A stretch of DNA of 64,000 bases, taken from Patescibacteria group bacterium (GTDB taxonomy: Bacteria > Patescibacteriota > Minisyncoccia > Minisyncoccales > RBG-13-36-15). The number at the start of each line of letters is the position of its first letter. The first letter of the stretch is position 1. The stretch spans positions 9,559-73,558 of the forward strand of contig JAHCSE010000001.1 in assembly GCA_018609195.1 (NCBI GenBank), in the 5' to 3' direction. Below the pieces are notes generated by a model. It did not search any database and was not told the origin of the DNA. It was given only the letters and a program-made list of their open reading frames with translations. Positions 13,697-57,700 of the stretch are shown here, piece after piece. The translations under genes and the position numbers were made by a program.

Positions 13697-14113
13697 TTAT
13701 CTTGGCAACACTTCAATTTTTTGTCCCTCTTTTATTTTGACTATTGCTTTTTTATATCCTTTTCTCCAGCCAGTTATTCTCCCTAATCTTCTCCTTTTTT
13801 GAGGAATCTTTATAATTTTAACATCTACGACCTTCACTCCATAAAGACCTTCAATTACCCTTTTAATCTCAATCTTATTAGATCTGGAATAAACTTTAAA
13901 AACGTATTGATTTTTTTTAGTCAAATCGGTAGCTTTCTCTGTGATATGGAGGGATTTTAATATTCGATAGGCATGAAGGGGAATTCCCTTTCTCTCAATT
14001 CTTTTTTCTTCTGGAGGAATTTCAGGTTCTCTCACTTCCTTCACCTTCTTTTCTGGAATTTCTCTTTTCTCTTTTTTAATTTTTTTCTTTCGAAAACGGT
14101 CTAAAATTCCCAT
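13697..14113 (-). CDS. rplW: 50S ribosomal protein L23 (N-terminal K/E-rich extension)
   Basis: L23 core (YVFKV...IKRVIEGLYGVKVVDVKII) preceded by about 45 extra residues. Confidence 0.88.
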   Translation of the reverse strand: MGILDRFRKKKIKKEKREIPEKKVKEVREPEIPPEEKRIERKGIPLHAYRILKSLHITEKATDLTKKNQYVFKVYSRSNKIEIKRVIEGLYGVKVVDVKIIKIPQKRRRLGRITGWRKGYKKAIVKIKEGQKIEVLPR

Positions 14114-15674: not shown

Positions 15675-15873
15675 ACTTTCCTACGAATTACTCTATCGCT
15701 AAGCGACTCCCCGGAGGGTTGATATTTGCGAATATACGAATAATAATTTTCCAACAAAATACCGGGCACTAACCCGGTACTTTATTTTGTAGGTTAGTTA
15801 ATTTTATAATTTTATAAATTTTTGAAATAATTATTTCTTATCATAATGAGATAAAAAATATATTCGTAGGTAT

Positions 15874-21501: not shown

Positions 21502-21618
21502 AAACCCTACGAATTACGAATCAGTACGAATATACGAATAAATTTCCCCGACCCCTTCCGACGTGGGCTGCTATTTCTGTTTCGCAGACAATAGTAACAT
21601 TATCCTCTCAAAAATAAT

Positions 21619-25325: not shown

Positions 25326-25364
25326 AGTCCTACGAATTACGAATATTTACGAATATACGAACAG

Positions 25365-35915: not shown

Positions 35916-36494
35916 CTAAATTTTACCTACTAATTTTAATCCGGGTTTTAAGGTTCTCTTTCCAGGTTCCCAACTGGCTGGGCAAACCAATCCTTTGTGT
36001 TCTCTGACAAATTTAGCTGCCTGCAATTTTCGTAAGATTTCTTTGACCGATCTGCCAATGCTATTGTTGTGCATTTCAAAAGCTTTAAGCTGACCATCAG
36101 GATCAATAATGAAAGTTCCTCGTAAAGAAAGACCTTCTTTTTCAATGTAGGTACCAAATTCTTGGCAAAGCTTTCCCGTTGGATCAGCTACCATCGGGAA
36201 TTTAATCTTTTTAATCGAAGGAGAATTATCATGCCAGGCCTTATGTACAAAAGCCGTATCGGTGCTCACACTTAAGATCTCTGCTCCCAATTTCTTAAAT
36301 TCAGAATAATATTTCGCAGCTTCTTCTAATTCTGTTGGGCAAACAAACGTAAAATCAGCAGGATAAAATAGCAATATAATCCATTTTCCCTTGTAATCAG
36401 AAAGTTTAATTTTTTTTATTTTTCCACTATGAAAAGCTTCCAACTCAACATCAGGTACTTTTTGATCAATTTTAACCATAGTTTTGTTAAACAA
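35916..36494 (-). CDS. 2-Cys peroxiredoxin (AhpC/Prx1 type)
   Basis: 192 aa; FTFVCPTEL peroxidatic Cys motif and a resolving Cys (GLVCPASW). Confidence 0.9.
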   Translation of the reverse strand: MFNKTMVKIDQKVPDVELEAFHSGKIKKIKLSDYKGKWIILLFYPADFTFVCPTELEEAAKYYSEFKKLGAEILSVSTDTAFVHKAWHDNSPSIKKIKFPMVADPTGKLCQEFGTYIEKEGLSLRGTFIIDPDGQLKAFEMHNNSIGRSVKEILRKLQAAKFVREHKGLVCPASWEPGKRTLKPGLKLVGKI

Positions 36495-36588: not shown

Positions 36589-36957
36589 TTAAATAAATAT
36601 TATTTTCCCTAAAACTAAATTTTTATTCACTTGACCAAAATTTTTACTCGATTCTGACCAGGAAACAGTGCCTTCTACAAAATAAAAATTATTTTTTATT
36701 TCTTTCACTTTTTTCACAAATATTTCTTTTCGGTTTTTTGGGTTTTGAAAAACAATAAAATCAGAAACTTTGGGTTTCAACAAATTAGTGGCCAAATACC
36801 TTTTCTCCGGAACTAAATTTGGCCAAGCTGATTCCCCTTCAACTTTTACCAGAAAAATCAATCCCAAAATTTTAGTAAAGTTTATCAGTGATTTCTTTAT
36901 AGGATTTAAATCTCTCTGGGACATTTTTAACCTCATAGAAGATTTTCGCAATTTCAT
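36589..36957 (-). CDS. sodX: S26-family peptidase, Ni-SOD maturation protease SodX-like
   Basis: GESAWP (catalytic Ser) and FVKKVKEI (Lys) motifs. Immediately downstream of sodN. Start uncertain because the ORF overlaps the sodN 3' end. Confidence 0.6.
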   Translation of the reverse strand: MKLRKSSMRLKMSQRDLNPIKKSLINFTKILGLIFLVKVEGESAWPNLVPEKRYLATNLLKPKVSDFIVFQNPKNRKEIFVKKVKEIKNNFYFVEGTVSWSESSKNFGQVNKNLVLGKIIFI

Positions 36958-37345
36958 CTACTGCATCTAATAATTTCTTGGCAGCTGTTTCATTTACTTC
37001 CTGTTTATTTTGAGAGCAAAGTTTTACTGCCTTCCAGAAAAGTTCATGAAGATTAGGAAACTTCTCGAGATGTTCTTCTTTGAAGAAATCAGACCACAAA
37101 ATCTCAAGTTCCTTTTTGCAAAGCTCTGCATGGTCTTCCTTATTTTTGATTCTTCTTGCCACGCTATTGAAATACTGCAAAAGAGAGTCTTTGTCCATAA
37201 TATCTCTTGGTAATTCCAATTCCTTCAATTGTTGAATCATCCTGGCAACGGTTTTCGCAGCAATTTTGGCAGGAGTAGGTTCATAAATTGCACAAGGAAT
37301 ATCACAATGCGCTTGAGCTATAATTTTTGGAAAAAAATTCATCAT
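36872..37345 (-). CDS. sodN: nickel superoxide dismutase precursor
   Basis: MMNFFPKIIAQA pro-peptide followed by the HCDIPCAIYEP Ni-hook. Start trimmed from the track ORF, whose extension crosses an upstream hairpin. Confidence 0.82.
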   Translation of the reverse strand: MMNFFPKIIAQAHCDIPCAIYEPTPAKIAAKTVARMIQQLKELELPRDIMDKDSLLQYFNSVARRIKNKEDHAELCKKELEILWSDFFKEEHLEKFPNLHELFWKAVKLCSQNKQEVNETAAKKLLDAVDEIAKIFYEVKNVPERFKSYKEITDKLY

Positions 37346-44602: not shown

Positions 44603-46030
44603 TTAAAATTTGCTTTTCGGCCCCTCAGATCCTGGTTTATACATTTTCAAAGGGGAAAGATTTTTTTGCCAACCTTTTAAAATTTGATCAATAAATCGCC
44701 AGCTATTCAGAGTCTCTCCGGTACTGACAAACAAAGTCTGATCACCCAAAAAAGAATCAATTAAAAGTTTTTCATAGGCTTCTAAAAGTTTTGCTTTGGG
44801 ATAGGCTTCTTGATAAATAAAGTGGAAAGTTTTTTTCTCAATTTCCATTTTTGGTCCTGGCTTTTTGACATTAAAACAATAGGATATGCCTTCTTTAGGT
44901 TGAATTTGAAAACATAAAGTATTTTTATAATGTTCTAACTCAGCTGGTGGACAAAAAAGACAAGGAGTGGTTTGTCTAAAAGTGATTAAAATCTCAGCTA
45001 CGTCCTGGTTTAATTTTTTACCACTTTCTAAATAAATAGGGACTCCCTCCCACCTTGGATGATGTAAAAAAGTCTTGATTTTAAAATAAGTCTCTCTCCG
45101 GGAATGGGGTTTAACTCCTGGGATTTCCAAATAGCCCTGGTATTGCCCTCTTACCGTATTCATTTTAATATCTTTTTTCGTCATTTTGGGGAGATATTTC
45201 AAAATCTCCGCTTTTTTTTCTCTAATCTCTTGGGGAGCTAAGTTAGGAGGAGCATCCATTGTGATTAAAGCCAGCATTTGTAAAAGGTGGTTTTGGCCAA
45301 CATCTCGTAAAGCCCCGAGGGGATCATAGAATAATCCTCTCTTTTCCACACCTTCTTTCTCCAAAAGCCTTATTTCAATTTTTTCAATAAAATCTTTGTT
45401 CCAGAGATTCTCAAAAACTGAGTTGGCAAAACGGAAAACTAATAAATTGGAAATCGTCTCTTTGGCTAAATAATGGTCAATTCGGAAAACCTGAATTTCT
45501 TTAAATAATTTGCCTAAAAGTTGATCCAACTTCTGAGCTCTCTCTAAATCTTGGCCAAAAGGCTTTTCCACCAAAACTCGAGTCCACCCTTCCTCAGGAC
45601 TACAAGGTTGCGTCAAACCGGATTTAGCTAAATTTTTAAAAATTATTTCATAATAATTTGGCGGGACAGCCAAATAAAATAATTTATTGGCACAAGTTCG
45701 AAATTTTCCATCAATGTGGCCTAATTTTTTACCTAGTGCAAAATAGCTTTCCATATTTTCAAAAAGCCCTGGTTGGTAGGAGAATTTTTTCAAAAGATCC
45801 TCAACCTTTGGGCTTTTTTTTAATAAATTTTTTCTTAACCAACCTTGATATTCTTTTTCTGTAAAATTTTCTTTTGCAAAACCAATAACTTGAAACATCT
45901 TTGGCAGAAAACCAGTTTGAGACAAATGCAAAATGCTTGGGAGTAATTTCCTTTCCATCAAATCTCCAGTGGCTCCAAAAATTATTAAAATCGTTGGGAA
46001 ATTTTCTAATTTCCTTTCAAGATTTTTCAT
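44603..46030 (-). CDS. zwf: glucose-6-phosphate 1-dehydrogenase
   Basis: FGATGDLMERKL, RIDHYLAKE and EKPFG motifs. Confidence 0.92.
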   Translation of the reverse strand: MKNLERKLENFPTILIIFGATGDLMERKLLPSILHLSQTGFLPKMFQVIGFAKENFTEKEYQGWLRKNLLKKSPKVEDLLKKFSYQPGLFENMESYFALGKKLGHIDGKFRTCANKLFYLAVPPNYYEIIFKNLAKSGLTQPCSPEEGWTRVLVEKPFGQDLERAQKLDQLLGKLFKEIQVFRIDHYLAKETISNLLVFRFANSVFENLWNKDFIEKIEIRLLEKEGVEKRGLFYDPLGALRDVGQNHLLQMLALITMDAPPNLAPQEIREKKAEILKYLPKMTKKDIKMNTVRGQYQGYLEIPGVKPHSRRETYFKIKTFLHHPRWEGVPIYLESGKKLNQDVAEILITFRQTTPCLFCPPAELEHYKNTLCFQIQPKEGISYCFNVKKPGPKMEIEKKTFHFIYQEAYPKAKLLEAYEKLLIDSFLGDQTLFVSTGETLNSWRFIDQILKGWQKNLSPLKMYKPGSEGPKSKF

Positions 46031-46304: not shown

Positions 46305-47420
46305 TTACCCAAAAGTAAATGTAAAGACCTGAAGTCCTGGTGAGTGAATTATTATTTCTAACGTGTGCCATCCGTACTCCTTCCCCGTATCTACAAGATT
46401 ATAGAGTTTTGATTCTTTGACCTTCGCGAATGACTTCCCCTCTTTAAAAAACGAGTCAGCCCCTTTGTTTTGCTCGGTAAGATATTCTCCATCGAGCTTT
46501 ACTTCAAGCGTAATCTCTGAATTTTCTCGATTTTCGAGCACTACATTTACCTTATTGGCCTTGTAGCGAAGGATGAGTTTTCCTTTCTCATCCACAAATT
46601 CTGCAAATTCAGGGTTAATACTCCAAGTGCCCACAAAATAAAAGCGGTTTCGCGCGATGCGCTCAGGTTCTACAAATGTATGTGGTTCATTCGGGCGAAC
46701 ATTTTTATCTTTATTACCAAGATTATTTATGCGCAAATACCCGAGATATATTTCCGGAGTCCCAATTTTTCGGAACTCAACACCAAGAGGTGCTTCTTTG
46801 ATTTCTGAAATTTTGTCAATCGAGAGAAATCCAGCTTCCAAAAGAAGCTGTTGAATTGCTCGTTCGGTTTCTGCATAACGGCCCTCTCCGAAATGATGGT
46901 AACGAATATTTCCATTAACGTCTATCAAATATTCAGCCGGCCAGTATTGGTTTTGAAAGGCATTCCAGGTTTTGTGATCGTTGTCCAAGGCAACGGGATA
47001 TTCCAGATTATATTTGCGAACTTCTTGTAAAACATTTTCCTTCTTTTTTTCAAAATCAAATTCCGGAGAATGAACGCTTAAAAGAACAAAGCCGCTATCT
47101 TTATATTTTCGATGCCACTCCGAAAGATGCGGAAAGGTACGGATGCAGTTAATGCAGGTGTAGGTCCAAAAATCGACCAAAACTACTTTGCCTCTTAGTT
47201 CCTCGAGGGTCAATGGCTCGGAATTAATCCAATCTTCAATACCTACCAACTCAGGTGCCTTTCTTTCAATGGGCAATTTTTGTAATTGCGGAATGGGCAT
47301 GATTCCTTTGAAAGTAATAAGACCTTTTTTATTTAGATATGAAATAGTACCCGCGATCAAAAGAAGCGCTAAAAGAAATAAAAAAATATACCTCATTGAA
47401 GTAATTTGCTTTGCAAACAA
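46305..47420 (-). CDS. membrane-anchored thioredoxin-fold protein with C-terminal beta-sandwich (DipZ C-terminal-like)
   Basis: VVLVDFWTYTCINCIRTFPHL (CxxC) redoxin domain plus about 170 aa of C-terminal domain. Confidence 0.7.
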   Translation of the reverse strand: MFAKQITSMRYIFLFLLALLLIAGTISYLNKKGLITFKGIMPIPQLQKLPIERKAPELVGIEDWINSEPLTLEELRGKVVLVDFWTYTCINCIRTFPHLSEWHRKYKDSGFVLLSVHSPEFDFEKKKENVLQEVRKYNLEYPVALDNDHKTWNAFQNQYWPAEYLIDVNGNIRYHHFGEGRYAETERAIQQLLLEAGFLSIDKISEIKEAPLGVEFRKIGTPEIYLGYLRINNLGNKDKNVRPNEPHTFVEPERIARNRFYFVGTWSINPEFAEFVDEKGKLILRYKANKVNVVLENRENSEITLEVKLDGEYLTEQNKGADSFFKEGKSFAKVKESKLYNLVDTGKEYGWHTLEIIIHSPGLQVFTFTFG

Positions 47421-47429
47421 ATGTGCTTT

Positions 47430-48185
47430 TTAGTTTTCTTGAACCCAATTAAGTTTTGCTATATGCGGAATCCACCCCTCTTTATCGACAGGCATATAGA
47501 TAGCTTCATACGTTTGCCCTGGCTTCAATCTCGGTTTTGGCTTAGGTTCATGATAATAGTAGGGCACCTCCACATCTATATCCGGAAAGCGCCACTTCTG
47601 TAAAAGTGAATAAATACCAGTTACCATTTTCTTGCCATCATTAATCAATAAAAATGATATCCAATAGGGATGCCCCTGCTCTTTTGGCCACGAAAATTCT
47701 GGTTCTTTTTGTTTTGAAATTGAGAGAACATCATTCTTTTGAATTGACGGTAGGGTATCAATTTTACCAAGAACAGTATTAGAGGCGATAATTTTCCTCC
47801 CTTTTCGAGCTCTTATTATGTAATGTGCACGGTCCTTATAATTATCGGTTACAAAGGCATAAAGGGAACCCTCAAACATTGGGAGTAATTTCGCATTAAT
47901 CTTCTTAAACGAATTGTAATTCTTGCAATCTTGATCCTTGCTTAACCTGCATTCCCATAACTCAAAATCTCTCGCTTTCACTGCTGGCCGAAATAGAATA
48001 GTGGTTGGTTCTGATTCACCCTTTTTTAACAAATCTACCTTCCCGCCGTATACACAGGCAAGAATAAATTTTGAACCAAAAAGAATCTTCGCCCGATGCG
48101 CCAAAACAGATTTATACGAAATCCATGCCGCTAACTTAATAAAAGTGCGACCTAAGATATTTTTTGTATCAAAAAGGAAAAACAT
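47430..48185 (-). CDS. hypothetical protein (251 aa)
   Basis: Intact ORF packed between the Trx-fold gene and ccdA. No family recognised. Confidence 0.5.
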   Translation of the reverse strand: MFFLFDTKNILGRTFIKLAAWISYKSVLAHRAKILFGSKFILACVYGGKVDLLKKGESEPTTILFRPAVKARDFELWECRLSKDQDCKNYNSFKKINAKLLPMFEGSLYAFVTDNYKDRAHYIIRARKGRKIIASNTVLGKIDTLPSIQKNDVLSISKQKEPEFSWPKEQGHPYWISFLLINDGKKMVTGIYSLLQKWRFPDIDVEVPYYYHEPKPKPRLKPGQTYEAIYMPVDKEGWIPHIAKLNWVQEN

Positions 48186-48202: not shown

Positions 48203-48979
48203 TTACAAATAATCAAGTATCCGCTCGTAGTCTATAAATTGCAAAGCTCTAAACCCCCAGGAAATTAAGAGCACCATCTTATTAGTAAGAAGCAGGATAC
48301 CAAGGAGGATAAGGAATGCGCCTCCGATAATTTCTACCCAGTGTAAATATCGAGTTATTTTTGTAATCGCAGAGGATACTGCTCCAATACCAGCGGCAAT
48401 AAGTAAAAAAGGGATAGCTAACCCCATAGAGAAAACGAAAAGGAGAAAGCCGCCCTGAAAGGCGGTAGAAGAAGTCGAAGCAAGAAAGAGAATTGCACCA
48501 AGAATTGGTCCCACACATGGTGTCCAGCCAGTGGCAAAAGCTGAACCAAGTAGAGCTGAACTCAATGGATTTCCGCGTCTGACTTGAAAAGGGAGTCTTA
48601 CCTTTCGTTCTTTGCTGAGGAATGAGGTAAGAAAAGGAATCCTGAAAATTCCTAACATAGAGAGACCGAAAAGTATGACAAATACGCCGGCAATACGCGT
48701 GAGCCAAATGCGATAAGCGCCAAAGGCTTGCCCTGCAAGACCTGCTAACGTTCCGAAGAGAACAAAAATAACCGTGACTCCCGCCATAAAAAATAGGCCG
48801 TTCAAAAAAATCTTCCTGCGGGCACTTCTTGCTTTTGTAGGATCTCTGAGTTCTTCAGCAGAGGTTCCACTGATAAAACCTAAATAAGCCGGTATAAGAG
48901 GAAGAGTGCAAGGGGCTAAGAACGTAATAATGCCGGCAATAAAAGCCGGGATAATGAGGGCAATTACTTCAGGGGTCAT
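48203..48979 (-). CDS. ccdA: cytochrome c-type biogenesis/thiol-disulfide transporter CcdA
   Basis: Canonical motifs LAPCTLPLIPAYLGF and WTPCVGPILGA; 258 aa. Confidence 0.85.
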   Translation of the reverse strand: MTPEVIALIIPAFIAGIITFLAPCTLPLIPAYLGFISGTSAEELRDPTKARSARRKIFLNGLFFMAGVTVIFVLFGTLAGLAGQAFGAYRIWLTRIAGVFVILFGLSMLGIFRIPFLTSFLSKERKVRLPFQVRRGNPLSSALLGSAFATGWTPCVGPILGAILFLASTSSTAFQGGFLLFVFSMGLAIPFLLIAAGIGAVSSAITKITRYLHWVEIIGGAFLILLGILLLTNKMVLLISWGFRALQFIDYERILDYL

Positions 48980-49506
48980 AATGCAAAAAGTTGTTGTACC
49001 TTAGATTTCATCTCATCAAAGGTCATGGGGCCCCGCTTATGGAAGAGGATATTTCCTTCTCCATCAACAAAAATTGTCTCTGGCATAGAAAATCCTCCGA
49101 TTGAGCGATAAAAAGAATCTTTGGGATCGAGGAGGAAAATAAGGGTATCTGTCACACCGAGATCATCTGTATAGCTCTTGGTTAGCTCAAGAGATTCAGC
49201 TCGGTCAATTGGAATAATGGTGATTTTATCTCCAAATTCCTGTTGGAGTTTTGCAAAATCCCCCAGTTCCTTAACGCAGAATGGACACCACACTGCCCAG
49301 GAATTTACAATAATGGATTTGCCTTGGAAATCGGAAAGAGCCACTGTGTTGCCACTATAGTCTTTCAAACTGAAATTGGGCGCTGGCTCAGGTTTTGGGG
49401 GCGTAAGAGTTTGAGTATCCTGTTTCTGACCCCCGCCCGAAACTATAAAAAAGATGATAATGGAGGCAAGAATAATAATTCCCACCACTACAAAGATTTT
49501 ATTCAT
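48976..49506 (-). CDS. TlpA/ResA-like membrane-anchored thioredoxin
   Basis: VNSWAVWCPFCVKE CxxC motif and N-terminal TM helix. Overlaps ccdA by 4 nt. Confidence 0.82.
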   Translation of the reverse strand: MNKIFVVVGIIILASIIIFFIVSGGGQKQDTQTLTPPKPEPAPNFSLKDYSGNTVALSDFQGKSIIVNSWAVWCPFCVKELGDFAKLQQEFGDKITIIPIDRAESLELTKSYTDDLGVTDTLIFLLDPKDSFYRSIGGFSMPETIFVDGEGNILFHKRGPMTFDEMKSKVQQLFAL

Positions 49507-49562
49507 AATAAATGCTAAAGCGAACCCACGGATGTATCACATTGCCGTGGGTTTGCTAAGAA

Positions 49563-49721
49563 TTATGCACATCCACCGCAGCCCCCTTTTTCTTTATGAG
49601 TATGTCCGCACTTCGAACATTTTTCCTGACGCTCCGCTCCACAGCAGGTCCCAGGGCTTTCAGTAGACTCTGAACCACAGCCGGGACAAATATGTGTTTT
49701 TTCGGTTGTTTCTTCTGCCAT
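49563..49721 (-). CDS. 8-Cys micro-protein 1 (52 aa), unannotated
   Basis: Own translation: MAEETTEKTHICPGCGSESTESPGTCCGAERQEKCSKCGHTHKEKGGCGGCA. Paralog of 51189..51338. Confidence 0.6.
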   Translation of the reverse strand: MAEETTEKTHICPGCGSESTESPGTCCGAERQEKCSKCGHTHKEKGGCGGCA

Positions 49722-49778
49722 ATTTTATATTTTTTGAAAATTTAATTTTACAATTTTTTCGACCTTTTCTTGGTTGTA

Positions 49779-50834
49779 TTATTTATACAATTCGGTATCT
49801 GGATAAGCTGCCACCCACGAAAACCAAAAAGCAGAAAAGGGATTGATGCGCTCCTCGCTGCCATCTGGCAATATCTTAAACATCCTGATCACATCAAGTT
49901 CTTTATCAGGCCGCAAGATAATAGTGGTATCTTGAAAAACATCCTCTACAGTGCCTTTTTCTTTTACTGCATCAATGTGGTATGCCTTAGCTTCTCCATT
50001 GATAACAATCCCGAATACAAAAGCATCATTAGGAAGTCGGGTATCAGTAGGTTTGGCAAGGGATAATGCCAAGTTTGTAGTTGAAAAATAATCGCCATAA
50101 GGCTTTGAGCCATAAAAGCGAAGAGCTCCCGTATCTTTGGAAAGAATTTCGCCATCAGGATGTAATTTTTTCCAGTTGCCGTAGCGCATCTGGTCTGAGG
50201 GCAATACTTTGAGTTTTGTTCCTGTCATTTCTCCTACAGCGGCTTCTCCCAAAATTTGCGGCCACAGGCTATCTGTCTTCCTATCATACATCACCAAGTT
50301 TGCCTTCCAGAGTTTTCCTGAGGTTCCAAACTCAACTCTCTCCCCTTTTACCAGAGGATCAAATATATACCCAGTGAGACAGAGAGGACAATAAGTAACA
50401 AGAACGCGTTCTCCCTCCACAATATCATTGACGATTTCATGCCAGACAGTAATCTGATAGGGATAAAAACGGTGAGTGTTTCCTCTCGAAAAAGCAATAC
50501 CTGGCTCTTCATCACTTAACCACTGATTTGCCTCTGTAATAGAAATAAACTTTGGATTATCAATAGAGGGAATGCCGTCTTTGGGCGGACCTCCACTAAT
50601 AATTTCTTCCAAAGGTATACTATGTTTAACTCCATCCGTCACCATAATTTCTTTTTCGGTTACCACAATTTCTTTTTCTCCTTCTTTGGTGATAATTTCC
50701 TCTTCTATGAGAACTTTTTCCTCTCGTGTTTCTCCTTTCGGCAGTTCAAACCTTTCTTTTCCAAATCTTTGGAAAATTAAAAAACCTACTCCTAAAAGAA
50801 TTAAAACTAAAATAGCAATATTAATAATCTTCAT
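49779..50834 (-). CDS. DUF3179 domain protein (membrane-anchored)
   Basis: GGPPKDGIPSIDNPKF motif, WHE...VTYCPLC, and an N-terminal TM helix. Confidence 0.7.
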   Translation of the reverse strand: MKIINIAILVLILLGVGFLIFQRFGKERFELPKGETREEKVLIEEEIITKEGEKEIVVTEKEIMVTDGVKHSIPLEEIISGGPPKDGIPSIDNPKFISITEANQWLSDEEPGIAFSRGNTHRFYPYQITVWHEIVNDIVEGERVLVTYCPLCLTGYIFDPLVKGERVEFGTSGKLWKANLVMYDRKTDSLWPQILGEAAVGEMTGTKLKVLPSDQMRYGNWKKLHPDGEILSKDTGALRFYGSKPYGDYFSTTNLALSLAKPTDTRLPNDAFVFGIVINGEAKAYHIDAVKEKGTVEDVFQDTTIILRPDKELDVIRMFKILPDGSEERINPFSAFWFSWVAAYPDTELYK

Positions 50835-50844
50835 TGGAATCTTT

Positions 50845-51099
50845 TTACTTTTTAGCCCACTGTTTTACCCTTTCGTAATCAACTTCGCCACAAATGAAAT
50901 CTTCGTTTGCAGTGTTGAAGAAAAATGGTACTCCCATACACCTCCCCTCCGCATATTCTCTCATTTTTTGAGCACTGTCTTTATTATGCCACACTTCGTA
51001 TTTTTCAACTTTTACCCCTTCTTCTTTCTCTAATCTCTCTATCAAAGGGTGCATATTCATACAATGAGGGCATTCTTCCCCGTAAAATTCCAAAAGCAT
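50845..51099 (-). CDS. small thioredoxin/glutaredoxin-like protein
   Basis: 84 aa; FYGEECPHC CxxC; GVPFF cis-Pro region. Confidence 0.75.
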   Translation of the reverse strand: MLLEFYGEECPHCMNMHPLIERLEKEEGVKVEKYEVWHNKDSAQKMREYAEGRCMGVPFFFNTANEDFICGEVDYERVKQWAKK

Positions 51100-51188
51100 G
51101 AGGTTAAAAAATCTGAAAGGCGCCTTAAAAACGAACCAGTCGCTCAGCTCCTTGTAATGCTTCGTATTAAAAGGCGTCTCAGGCTATT

Positions 51189-51338
51189 TTAAGCTGCGCA
51201 ACACTCTTTGGCGTACTTACCCGAACCACATCCACAAACCTTTTCTCTTGATGCACCACAACACGTTCCTCCTTCTTCACCCTCGGGAGGTGTACTGCCA
51301 CAGCTTTGGCATTTGTACTGGTCTTTTTCTTCAGCCAT
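51189..51338 (-). CDS. 8-Cys micro-protein 2 (49 aa), unannotated
   Basis: Own translation: MAEEKDQYKCQSCGSTPPEGEEGGTCCGASREKVCGCGSGKYAKECCAA. Confidence 0.6.
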   Translation of the reverse strand: MAEEKDQYKCQSCGSTPPEGEEGGTCCGASREKVCGCGSGKYAKECCAA

Positions 51339-51465
51339 AAATTGCTAAAAATTTAACGGTATTTTTGTTTTTTCGACCTTTCCCCGTAGAGAAATTTTGA
51401 CATCCGCCTTTGGCGGAAATAGTGTTTTGTTTAACAAAACACCAGTCAAAATTCTTCTACGGGGT

Positions 51466-51780
51466 TTATTTTAATAATCCTTTAATTTTTTCAGCAAGGG
51501 AGTAGCAAGCCATTCTCCCAATCTTCACCCTTCTTACCAAACCTGCTCTCTCAAGTAAACTCAATTGATGGGAAACAGCGCTTATACTAATATGTAAAAT
51601 TTGTGAAAAGTCAGTAGGACACAATTTTTTATAGTGTTTGAGCAAAAAAATAATTTTAAGGCGGGTGGGGTCAGAACAAAGATAATAAAAACTGCTTTTT
51701 TCTTTAATTTTTTGAGAAAGTTTTGCTAATTCTCTCTGGGAATTTTTGATTTCTCTTCCCTTAAGAAGCATTAATTGCAT
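51466..51780 (-). CDS. ArsR/SmtB-family transcriptional regulator
   Basis: 104 aa; winged HTH (DPTRLKIIFLL...ISISAVSHQLSLLERAGLV). Confidence 0.8.
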   Translation of the reverse strand: MQLMLLKGREIKNSQRELAKLSQKIKEKSSFYYLCSDPTRLKIIFLLKHYKKLCPTDFSQILHISISAVSHQLSLLERAGLVRRVKIGRMACYSLAEKIKGLLK

Positions 51781-51798
51781 ATTTGCTCAACTATTTAA

Positions 51799-51826
51799 AT
51801 ATTATCTGGATAAAAAAACTTGTCAA
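51799..51826 (-). promoter_or_regulatory. promoter of ArsR-1 with TTATC-N2-GATAA inverted repeat in the spacer
   Basis: Minus strand TTGACA-agtttttttatccaga-TAATAT. Confidence 0.5.
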
Positions 51827-51941
51827 GTGGTAGGTTGTGGAAAACTCAACCTTAAGAAATAAAAAGCCACTTTAAAACTTGGGGGTTTAAACTTTTGAAT
51901 CAACATGTTTTTGTCTTATTACTCTTTTTCCTTAAGATTAA

Positions 51942-52896: not shown

Positions 52897-53064
52897 TTAT
52901 TGATGCCTGTCCTGTAGGACGTGCTTATTAATTTCGAGATTGCAGCTTTTGTGTTCTCTGCACCAAGCCTCACATTTCTCTGCCCACTCTTCATCTTCAT
53001 ACTTATATCCACATTCCTCGCATTGATATAATTCTTTGTTTTCTTGTTCTATTTTCTTAACCAT
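52897..53064 (-). CDS. Cys-rich zinc-ribbon protein (55 aa), unannotated paralog of 57515..57700
   Basis: Own translation: MVKKIEQENKELYQCEECGYKYEDEEWAEKCEAWCREHKSCNLEINKHVLQDRHQ. Overlaps the upstream gene by 8 nt. Confidence 0.65.
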   Translation of the reverse strand: MVKKIEQENKELYQCEECGYKYEDEEWAEKCEAWCREHKSCNLEINKHVLQDRHQ

Positions 53065-57514: not shown

Positions 57515-57700
57515 TTAGCTCTCTGACTTCTCAAGGAAAGCAGGTTCTTTCACAGCGTGCTCGGTAATCTCAAGGTTACAGCTTTTGTGTTCCAAGCACC
57601 AAGCCTCGCATTTCTCTGCCCACTCTTTTTCTCTATAAGTAAAACCGCACTCTCTGCACTGGTAATACGTTTTATTGTTTTGAGTAATAACTTTTGGCAT
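57515..57700 (-). CDS. Cys-rich zinc-ribbon protein (61 aa)
   Basis: YYQCRECGFTYREKEWAEKCEAWCLEHKSCNLEI. Paralog of 52897..53064. Confidence 0.65.
   Translation of the reverse strand: MPKVITQNNKTYYQCRECGFTYREKEWAEKCEAWCLEHKSCNLEITEHAVKEPAFLEKSES

Follow-up and report, generated by a model that had tools for sequence, protein, structure and literature searches.

Introduction

The oxidative-stress enzymes of anaerobes classically work with small Fe(Cys)4 proteins, vicinal Cys-Cys (CC) pairs favour soft metals and metalloids, as in ArsD, and thioredoxin 2 (TrxC) of Escherichia coli carries an N-terminal zinc-binding domain of the form CxxC-x-CxxC. Here we analyse two short genes, micro1 and micro2, each encoding an eight-cysteine micro-protein that appears to be assembled from metal-binding modules of this general kind. 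They lie among thioredoxin-like genes in a stretch of 64,000 nucleotides from a Patescibacteria group bacterium (assembly GCA_018609195.1, contig JAHCSE010000001.1, positions 9,559 to 73,558 of the forward strand), which we refer to as the window. The Patescibacteria (candidate phyla radiation, CPR) account for a very large share of bacterial diversity and are mostly uncultivated; their genomes are tiny and their stress physiology is poorly understood.

Another described system of relevance is the SecA-like, or SEC-C, metal-binding domain. Domains of the SecA, YecA and YchJ type contain a conserved serine (in the motif CxCxSG) and an aromatic residue, are reported to prefer iron in vivo and, in the case of the SecA type, bind SecB and ribosomes (10.1101/613315). 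Moreover, the cysteines of the C-terminal SEC-C domain of YchJ have been described as a switch that senses reactive oxygen species (ROS) (PMC13377102).

We hypothesise that the micro-protein is a cytoplasmic, redox-reactive metal-thiolate buffer with two metal(Cys)4 sites, which is recycled by the redoxins encoded beside it, and we put the probability of this reading at roughly 40%. The likeness to metallothionein and thionein would be one of action and not of ancestry, and the role of the micro-protein would probably lie in oxidative or disulfide stress. We prefer a buffer because the ligands and the number of modules vary freely between family members, and the one constant neighbour is a thioredoxin-fold protein.

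Two eight-cysteine genes under purifying selection

The two genes are as follows.

49563..49721, minus strand: micro1, 52 amino acids, 8 Cys, MAEETTEKTHICPGCGSESTESPGTCCGAERQEKCSKCGHTHKEKGGCGGCA
51189..51338, minus strand: micro2, 49 amino acids, 8 Cys, MAEEKDQYKCQSCGSTPPEGEEGGTCCGASREKVCGCGSGKYAKECCAA

The original prediction, which was made from the letters of the window alone, placed two open reading frames (ORFs) with eight cysteines each at these positions, and both are indeed there, on the minus strand. The layout that it gave for the pair, MAEE..CxxCGS..GTCCGA.R, is correct, and its proposal of paralogy agrees with BLASTP, which aligns the first 35 residues at 46% identity (E 2e-5); micro1 and micro2 are thus evidently paralogues. 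Of 165 ATG-initiated ORFs of 30-90 amino acids within the window, these are the two that contain eight cysteines, the runner-up having five, and shuffled sequence gives a mean of 0.08 ORFs of comparable cysteine content. A ratio of nonsynonymous to synonymous substitution (dN/dS) near 1 in related genomes had been suggested as the sign that the ORFs are not real. Codon comparisons instead gave 0.07 for micro1 (window against the related locus L001; loci recovered elsewhere carry L numbers and homologous proteins P numbers) and 0.09-0.15 for micro2, using orthologues of related metagenomic contigs. Readings of the pair as chance ORFs or as non-coding DNA are ruled out by the dN/dS values and the cysteine statistics, and micro1 and micro2 are genuine genes under purifying selection.

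Both had also been described as unannotated, which was true of the list of ORFs available at the time but not of the NCBI, JGI and ENA gene calls, where the exact micro1 and micro2 proteins occur without a name. The micro1 orthologue P0001 is 96% identical, and micro1 is restricted to the lineage of the window and L001; it is absent between the DUF3179 and TlpA genes in L002-L004 and L016, where the gap is just 85 nt, and is apparently a lineage-specific extra copy. The micro-proteins are hydrophilic, with a cysteine share of 16%, and both a signal peptide and a membrane segment are missing from their sequences, which suggests that they are cytoplasmic.

A Shine-Dalgarno-like sequence precedes only about 8 of 75 genes in the window and upstream regions are A/T-rich, so that initiation appears to be largely Shine-Dalgarno-independent in this organism; the missing Shine-Dalgarno sequence of the micro ORFs is therefore uninformative, since almost no window gene has one. 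Separately, a 12-mer, GTAATTCGTAGG, is found on the minus strand at 15680..15691, 21506..21517 and 25329..25340 (three copies, 0.13 expected), and each copy ends 3-5 nt ahead of a start codon, i.e., in the Shine-Dalgarno position.

Two putative metal-binding knuckles in one short chain

The cysteines of each micro-protein fall into two groups of four. In the N-terminal half micro2 has C10-x2-C13-x12-C26C27, the desulforedoxin pattern, and micro1 has C12-x2-C15-x10-C26C27; the ligands of desulforedoxin, taken from the PDB alignment, are C-x2-C-x15-CC. The C-terminal half of micro2, C35-x-C37-x8-C46C47 (C35-G-C37-GSGKYAKE-C46-C47), has exactly the SecA-like spacing and ends 2 residues before the stop. 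The SEC-C serine and aromatic residue are kept as CGSGKY in micro2 and most homologues, with the aromatic residue shifted by one position. In micro1 this half has been remodelled to CxxC-x9-CxxC, an arrangement found otherwise only in P0011, which does not fit the SEC-C ligand pattern, and the serine and aromatic residue are missing as well.

Comparison of a family profile with the PDB led to the same division. The C-half matched the C-terminal SEC-C domain of YchJ (E 0.006, profile positions 31-48) and the SecA metal-binding domain (E 0.086), and the N-half matched desulforedoxin (E 0.0095, positions 6-33), desulfoferrodoxin (E 0.11) and rubredoxin-like domains. With hhalign the SecA domain was found at P 6e-6 and 85% probability, the SecA peptide used being in agreement with the PDB alignments, and desulforedoxin at P 2.7e-4 and 42% probability. 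Weak Pfam SEC-C matches were present in 7 of 18 family members, the best at 0.003. An AlphaFold model (predicted local distance difference test, pLDDT, 75.8) was compared by Foldseek with 350,542 PDB chains, and the top match was desulforedoxin (1dxg), followed by the N-domains of superoxide reductase. Individually these profile and fold scores are marginal, yet they are mutually consistent and specific to each half. Thus, each micro-protein resembles two tetra-cysteine knuckles, the N-half being desulforedoxin-like and the C-half, in micro2, SEC-C-like, and each half would be expected to hold one Zn(II) or Fe ion through four thiolates.

A rubredoxin pattern was also considered. The micro1 sequence includes CPGCG and CSKCG knuckles, but the family lacks an aromatic core, having one or two tyrosines, and the rubredoxin matches in the PDB are partial, covering the first knuckle only (E 0.02-0.9).

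A family confined to Patescibacteria

Scans of micro1 and micro2 against Pfam and NCBIfam gave no model and no usable match: there was no Pfam match even at E<=10, and NCBIfam returned two marginal, unrelated matches and none to its SCIFF model. Among 1.84 billion representative proteins, HMMER with a profile built from six close sequences picked up 12 relatives (E<1e-3); a profile and word-indexed search of a collection of 5.8 billion proteins found 22 clusters, and a 7-sequence alignment recovered four genome loci and two metagenome loci. All relatives are 47-84 amino acids long, all those of known taxonomy are from Patescibacteria, Saccharibacteria included, and no fusion to a larger protein was found among them. 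The consensus of the family is YKCxSCGSxSxExGxCCGxxREKxCxCGSGKxAKECC. Literature searches on the family, on the motif upstream of it and on DUF3179 found no description of these proteins.

From these searches the family would appear to be small, uncatalogued, restricted to Patescibacteria and assembled from two known mini metal-binding modules. What is new is the arrangement of desulforedoxin-like and SEC-C-like knuckles; it is not a new category of protein. The family is an example of a small protein that gene callers and family databases either miss or leave nameless, and two known modules in a free-standing chain of 49 residues make a tractable target for metal analysis and spectroscopy.

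There is considerable variation around the consensus. In a subfamily with tandem N-modules (P0015, P0028-P0033) the adjacent CC has become HC, in the L018 member it has become CGC, many members have an additional N-terminal CxxC or CxC motif, and desulforedoxin-like repeats occur in tandem in some. A 55-amino acid Saccharibacteria protein (L019, 2205..2372, also L021) has two tandem SEC-C motifs (CSCGSGKKYGECC...CFCGSGKMAKECC) without the desulforedoxin-like half. A basic amphipathic N-terminal extension (MFKFLKK or MFDFLKKIK) is conserved in P0006, P0008, P0014, L012 (1460..1480) and L018 (5971..), and may be a tag for binding a membrane or a partner. The annotated start of the L012 member is probably 21 nt too far downstream.

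The extension, present in many homologues, is one of several features that would suit a structural zinc-ribbon adaptor or regulator, which might bind the ribosome, the ArsR-type repressor described below, CcdA or a small redoxin, in the last case like a Trx2 zinc finger on a separate chain, possibly as a zinc-redox switch. The SEC-C half is the best-supported homology of the family, and both the SecB and ribosome binding of SecA-type domains (10.1101/613315) and the ROS-sensing role of the YchJ cysteines (PMC13377102) would give it a precedent. In addition, zinc-finger micro-proteins of haloarchaea act in regulation, and P0007 is called a DUF1610-like Zn-ribbon by JGI. However, DUF1610 is not among the 25 Pfam families listed with the largest number of matching members, no partner can be identified from sequence, and a variable number of modules is less expected of a specific adaptor. 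We consider this role quite unlikely.

A second family of duplicated, cysteine-rich micro-proteins, which is DUF7128-like, occurs in the same gene island at 52897..53064 and 57515..57700 (minus strand), with the pattern YxCxECG...WAEKCEAWCxEHKSCNLEI, and was also seen at L001 7637..7804 and L017 3303..3533. The L017 protein has an extra CHCMMC N-terminus and lies directly after an ArsR gene and a copy of the upstream box AAAGGTCGA discussed below.

Linkage to redox genes

In the window the two micro genes are part of a block of genes on the same strand.

51466..51780, minus strand: ArsR/SmtB winged-helix regulator, directly upstream of micro2; Pfam HTH_5 1.2e-12
50845..51099, minus strand: 84-amino acid cytoplasmic thioredoxin-fold protein (Trx84) with a CPHC motif, downstream of micro2; Pfam Thioredoxin 25.1 bits
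49779..50834, minus strand: DUF3179 protein, anchored in the membrane by its N-terminus, with the motif YCPLC; Pfam DUF3179 1.8e-80
48976..49506, minus strand: membrane-anchored thiol-disulfide oxidoreductase of the TlpA/ResA type, downstream of micro1; matches to Pfam Redoxin and AhpC-TSA and to NCBIfam ResA and TlpA
48203..48979, minus strand: CcdA (DsbD transmembrane domain), transmembrane thiol electron transporter; Pfam DsbD_TM 1.4e-21
47430..48185, minus strand: 251-amino acid protein with no Pfam match
46305..47420, minus strand: TlpA fused to Thioredoxin_10
44603..46030, minus strand: G6PD

Pfam therefore bears out the neighbours that had been named, thioredoxin and DUF3179 following micro2 and a TlpA/ResA-like protein and CcdA following micro1; the ArsR-type regulator directly upstream of micro2 had been missed. 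The DUF3179 family includes selenoprotein forms with UxxC. Upstream of the block are genes for a CcdA-like membrane protein, a DUF7128-like cysteine-rich micro-protein, Thioredoxin_3 and an HMA-domain protein, together with two DsbD_TM-like proteins, DoxX, VKOR, SPFH, a cupredoxin and a DsbA-like protein. There is no gene for a protein resembling thioredoxin reductase (TrxR) in the 64-kb window.

Linkage of the family to small redoxins, TrxR, TlpA-CcdA, DUF3179, superoxide dismutase (SOD) and an ArsR/SmtB regulator recurs across about ten lineages. An ArsR gene lies directly upstream of micro in window/L001, L002, L009, L012 and L020, and the pair of micro and Trx84 is found in the window, L001, L002 and L020. 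The gene orders are ArsR-micro-Trx84 in L020, ArsR-micro-TlpA-CcdA in L012, ArsR-micro in L009 and micro-DUF3179-TlpA-CcdA in L018, such that TlpA-CcdA, with or without DUF3179, is downstream of micro in the window, L012 and L018. In other loci the partners are glutaredoxin (Grx), which adjoins micro in L005, L017, L023 and L024, and a TrxR-like gene (L005, L011 and L024). Here the orders are Grx-TrxR-micro (L005), micro-TrxR (L011), CcdA-Grx-DsbA-micro (L017, from Saccharibacteria), micro-Grx with pentose-phosphate genes after it (L023) and FeSOD-micro-Grx-TrxR-transketolase (L024). A CsoR-family gene is near micro in L007. The tandem-repeat subfamily alone sits elsewhere, beside BrkB-like, NifX-like, DUF134 and ArsP-like genes (L013, L022). 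The micro family thus appears to be a fixed part of the thiol and oxidative-stress genes of Patescibacteria.

The proximity to TrxR-like flavoproteins, the genes of which are 20-60 nt from micro in L005, L011 and L024, raises the possibility that the micro-protein is an electron carrier of the desulforedoxin/rubredoxin type, with Fe(Cys)4 in each knuckle and single electrons passing from a TrxR/AhpF-like flavoprotein to an oxidative-stress enzyme or a chain of redoxins. Small Fe(Cys)4 proteins classically have such partners in anaerobes, the best sequence and fold matches of the N-half are desulforedoxin and the desulfoferrodoxin N-domain, and iron is the metal that SecA-like domains reportedly prefer in vivo (10.1101/613315). 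The adjacent flavoproteins also lack the HRRxxxR motif for NADPH, L011 having EYAGEFR, which is AhpF-like, and L005 IRGKEVI. The missing motif might suggest a ferredoxin-type TrxR, yet one of these enzymes is simply AhpF-like. However, replacement of cysteine by histidine, rearranged ligands and a variable number of modules would be unusual for a tuned Fe(Cys)4 centre, and a one-electron carrier cannot directly reduce the disulfide of Trx or CcdA. Furthermore, no superoxide reductase, rubrerythrin or flavodiiron acceptor was seen in any locus, the SODs that are present need no reductant, and the window has no TrxR-like gene at all. We regard an electron carrier as the main rival to the buffer that we favour, though as the less likely of the two.

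Three further observations concern the surrounding genes. A nickel superoxide dismutase is encoded at 36872..37345 (minus strand; Pfam Sod_Ni 4.8e-42), a short leader preceding its Ni-hook HCDIPCAIY, and is followed by a SodX-like maturation peptidase of the S26 type (36589..36957, minus strand) and, downstream of both, a peroxiredoxin gene (35916..36479); a nickel SOD in a Patescibacteria genome is notable. Pentose-phosphate genes (G6PD, 6PGD, RpiB, Rpe, transketolase) repeatedly adjoin the thiol-redox/micro block, in the window from 44603..46030 onward and in L002, L023 and L024, as might be expected if NADPH for the reductive pathway were provided locally. Finally, the Trx84 orthologue at L002 5900..6282 (also L003, L004 and L016) appears to be disrupted or to bear an insertion, as the tblastn match in L002 is stretched to 105 amino acids at 44% identity and the intact ORF comprises only the C-terminal 39.

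The ArsR-type regulator

The regulator scores 62.5 bits with the NCBIfam model HTH_metalloreg, for which the cut-off is 55 bits, and its closest solved structures are Lmo1102, SmtB and CadC. It has no alpha5 helix, no N-terminal or CxC ligands and no alpha3N metal site; the SmtB and CadC references in the underlying alignment serve for orientation only. The orthologues, that of Saccharibacteria among them, have just two conserved cysteines, the first in alpha3 (LCPTD) and the second in the wing (xCY), which would suit a thiol-based switch no less than a metal site.

Upstream of the gene is the following region.

51781..51847, minus strand: ArsR gene promoter region, consisting of AAGTTTTCCACA, then TTGACA-16-TAATAT, then AATAGTTGAGCAAAT, a candidate operator

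The sigma-70-like promoter TTGACA-16-TAATAT at 51826..51799 is the best such site on the minus strand in the region, and the promoter with AATAGTTGAGCAAAT is conserved in six lineages and unique within the window. The listed ATG of the ArsR gene (51772..51780) overlaps AATAGTTGAGCAAAT, and translation probably begins at an ATG downstream of it (MLLKGREI...), as it does in the orthologues.

A regulator of this family next to a small cysteine-rich protein may indicate a metal-detoxifying metallothionein, with ArsR/SmtB sensing Zn, Cd, Cu or As and derepressing the micro-protein in the style of SmtB-SmtA, and the thiol-redox genes merely co-induced. Consistent with this, the ArsR/SmtB-family gene is directly upstream in at least five lineages, the closest solved relatives of the regulator are the metal sensors Lmo1102/CadC and SmtB, a CsoR-family gene is near micro in L007, and the island also contains genes for HMA-domain and cupredoxin proteins. 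The micro-protein itself, being small, hydrophilic and 16% cysteine, would be suitable, and its vicinal CC pairs would suit soft metals and metalloids. On the other hand, known metal-sensing members of the family use an alpha5 helix and N-terminal or CxC ligands that are missing from this regulator, in which only two cysteines are conserved, and no efflux pump accompanies it. Nor does the micro-protein match a bacterial metallothionein model in Pfam or NCBIfam, and family members without an ArsR gene sit in SOD-Grx-TrxR operons. A dedicated detoxification system therefore seems unlikely to us.

A box shared with oxidative-stress genes

Each micro gene is preceded by the sequence AAAGGTCGA. The boxes of the window that lie ahead of a gene are listed here by the position of their 5' ends.

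61646, minus strand: box of a DsbA-like gene, gene start 61613
59736, minus strand: box of an SPFH gene, gene start 59703
52853, minus strand: box of a CcdA-like gene, gene start 52799
51381, minus strand: box of micro2, gene start 51338; AAAGGTCGA at 51373..51381, 35 nt upstream of the start codon
49767, minus strand: box of micro1, gene start 49721; AAAGGTCGA at 49759..49767, 38 nt upstream of the start codon
40320, minus strand: box of a cupredoxin gene, gene start 40279
37385, minus strand: box of the Ni-superoxide dismutase gene, gene start 37345
36517, minus strand: box of the peroxiredoxin gene, gene start 36479
29273, minus strand: box of a DUF5679 zinc ribbon gene, gene start 29224

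An upstream motif proper to each micro gene had been predicted, and the motif does stand ahead of both. It is not private to them, as the window has seven exact copies of AAAGGTCGA where 0.5 would be expected, all on the gene strand, and these mark a wider set of stress genes. For the form AAAGGTCG the gene strand has ten copies against one on the opposite strand, and nine copies sit 25-46 nt upstream of a start codon. A run of G often precedes the box, giving (GGGGn)AAAGGTCG(A).

The same box is found upstream of micro homologues in L001, L002, L007, L011, L017 and L020, and variants with one mismatch in L012 and L019, that of L019 (AAAGGTCTA) preceding the double SEC-C gene. The box or a one-mismatch variant is present in 6/6 ArsR-linked micro loci. 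It is also ahead of other Cys/His-rich genes, for example those encoding MKHGSQCHCMMC..DEHHDEHHH in L005 and MSYLCKMHKSC in L020. In L001 8335..8385 and L002 ~13811..13870 short hairpin inserts of the type GGCTCAGG...CACTGAGC lie immediately 3' of the box, and may represent a small mobile element that targets it.

As a -35 or -10 element AAAGGTCGA was rejected, the distance to a -10-like hexamer varying from 10 to 28 nt. Because the spacing varies and no conserved partner element was found, it does not qualify as a fixed part of a core promoter. Only in L001 is it palindromic, the box of both micro genes being lengthened there to GGTCGACC, and it is missing from the promoter of the ArsR gene itself. 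A scan of 46-55 kb against Rfam at E<=1 found no RNA family, so that the motif is not a known riboswitch or leader. Since it also precedes the Ni-SOD, peroxiredoxin, DsbA, CcdA-like and cupredoxin genes, it looks like the cis-element of a wider oxidative-stress and thiol regulon, for which the co-located ArsR homologue is a candidate reader. A literature search on the motif found no paper, and within the searches made here an upstream box common to micro and classical oxidative-stress genes is previously undescribed. Such a box is a concrete, testable handle on the control of transcription in organisms whose regulons are almost entirely unknown.

Hairpins downstream of the micro genes

Two regions of RNA structure follow the micro genes of the window.

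49519..49557, minus strand: stable hairpin directly after the micro1 stop; -20.2 kcal/mol, z -4.5; also in L001
51104..51192, minus strand: structured region with a U-run after the micro2 stop; z -2.0

The micro1 hairpin is a candidate terminator, attenuator or 3' stabiliser. At the site after micro2, L001 (z -6.95) and L002 (z -5.6) have strong terminator hairpins of unrelated sequence. A stable hairpin follows every micro gene (z -2 to -7), with sequences that are unrelated between lineages, and this suggests that the micro-proteins are separately dosed, abundant products. Between the ArsR gene and micro2, at 51382..51466, is an 85-nt inverted repeat with perfect arms and two inner hairpins, which folds into a Y shape (-46.9 kcal/mol, z -11.6). 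It is absent from L002, has a different insert in its place in L001, and could serve as a terminator or insulator, or else represent a miniature mobile element.

The hairpins also bear on whether the ORFs might be cysteine-rich precursors of ribosomally synthesised and post-translationally modified peptides (RiPPs), of the SCIFF or ranthipeptide kind, or else regulatory leader peptides for the redox genes downstream. What speaks for this is only their size and cysteine density, and that each ORF precedes redox genes. Against this, a terminator-like hairpin stands between each micro gene and the genes downstream, and conservation spans the whole chain without a division into leader and core and matches folded metal modules. 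The original prediction, which raised the resemblance to SCIFF, had itself noted that no radical-SAM maturase is nearby, and we agree: no ORF of at least 150 amino acids in the 64-kb window contains CxxxCxxC, and no neighbour has a Pfam Radical_SAM match. Elsewhere no radical-SAM gene is next to a homologue, the one in L024 being of the UPF0004/MiaB type and two genes away. With neither a maturase nor a SCIFF match the RiPP reading was rejected, and we regard this whole class of explanation as highly improbable.

Discussion

Of the functions that were suggested originally, the metal-binding and thioredoxin-coupled ones are supported here, and have been sharpened by the half-specific module matches and by the linkage across lineages. 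In the buffer that we propose, the thiolates of the micro-protein would be open to attack by oxidants or to binding by thiophilic metals, and the micro-protein would thus serve as a metallothionein/thionein-like sink that releases or captures metal. The adjoining small Trx or Grx and a TrxR-type flavoprotein would restore the micro-protein to its reduced, metal-loaded state, and the same gene block would send reducing power outward, CcdA passing it to TlpA and DUF3179. Control of expression would lie with the upstream ArsR/SmtB-type repressor, with a factor that reads the AAAGGTCGA box, or with both.

Several points weigh against this proposal. Classical metallothioneins have a higher ratio of metal ions to cysteines, with the metal in bridged clusters, and apart from the cysteines their sequences are poorly conserved; the micro family has well conserved non-cysteine residues (YKC, GS, REK, GSGKYAKE), which therefore point to discrete folded knuckles. 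The ArsR homologue may not sense metal, because the known alpha5 and alpha3N metal sites are missing. In addition, the suggested action of the adjacent redoxins on the micro-protein rests on the linkage of their genes, and that linkage is equally compatible with a role as electron carrier or adaptor.

A broader reading would place these elements in a lineage-specific oxidative-stress regulon of Patescibacteria, composed of the (GGGGn)AAAGGTCGA box, a two-cysteine, redox-sensing repressor of the ArsR type and the micro-protein as its dedicated redox-active metalloprotein. Taken together with this, the micro-protein would be a thiol/metal buffer or an electron carrier in minimal cells that are without the usual low-molecular-weight thiols. 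As a combined proposal we hold this to be speculative and, on balance, doubtful.

Comparison with known systems

The pairing of ArsR and micro recalls SmtB-SmtA, BmtA and MymT, in which there is likewise a small cysteine-rich cytoplasmic protein beside a regulator of the ArsR/SmtB family; a thiolate-buffering role is plausible for the micro-protein too. However, the micro-protein has no sequence relationship to SmtA or other bacterial metallothioneins (no match to PF02069), and two isolated M(Cys)4 sites would be expected in it in place of a bridged cluster. The organisation also differs, as SmtB-SmtA is divergent whereas ArsR and micro are co-directional, with micro downstream, and the micro regulator is without the known metal sites.

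The haloarchaeal zinc-finger micro-proteins (DUF1610/HVO_2753 and HVO_0649) are likewise free-standing, with knuckles of the CPxCG type in about 50-60 amino acids. Their scores are marginal only (6ydh E 1.1, HVO_0649 E 0.33), and the domain of life and the genomic context are different. TrxC unites a tetra-cysteine zinc module and a thioredoxin fold within an oxidative-stress regulon, a combination that is echoed by the adjacent genes for micro and the 84-amino acid Trx, although these are separate polypeptides and the cysteine patterns differ.

Closer in sequence is the SEC-C or SecA-like domain (SecA C-terminus, YecA, YchJ; PF02810). The C-half of micro2, C-x-C-G-S-G-K-x-x-K-x-C-C, has the same CxC-x8-C[CH] spacing and is at the extreme C-terminus, but it accounts for a third of a free-standing protein of 49 amino acids where SEC-C forms the tail of a large protein, and the motif is lost in micro1.

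Finally, desulforedoxin (Dx of Desulfovibrio gigas) and the desulfoferrodoxin N-domain (2Fe-superoxide reductase, PF06397) differ from the N-half in the spacer, which is 15 residues in desulforedoxin and 12 in the micro-protein, and in that the micro module is fused to a second knuckle. Some micro members have a histidine for the second adjacent cysteine, and the hosts are Patescibacteria and not sulfate reducers. Nevertheless, the ligand pattern is the same, CxxC and an adjacent CC, the flanks are alike (YKCxxCG ... G(T)xCCGxx(M/R)xK), the proteins are comparably small, and both are tied to oxidative-stress genes.

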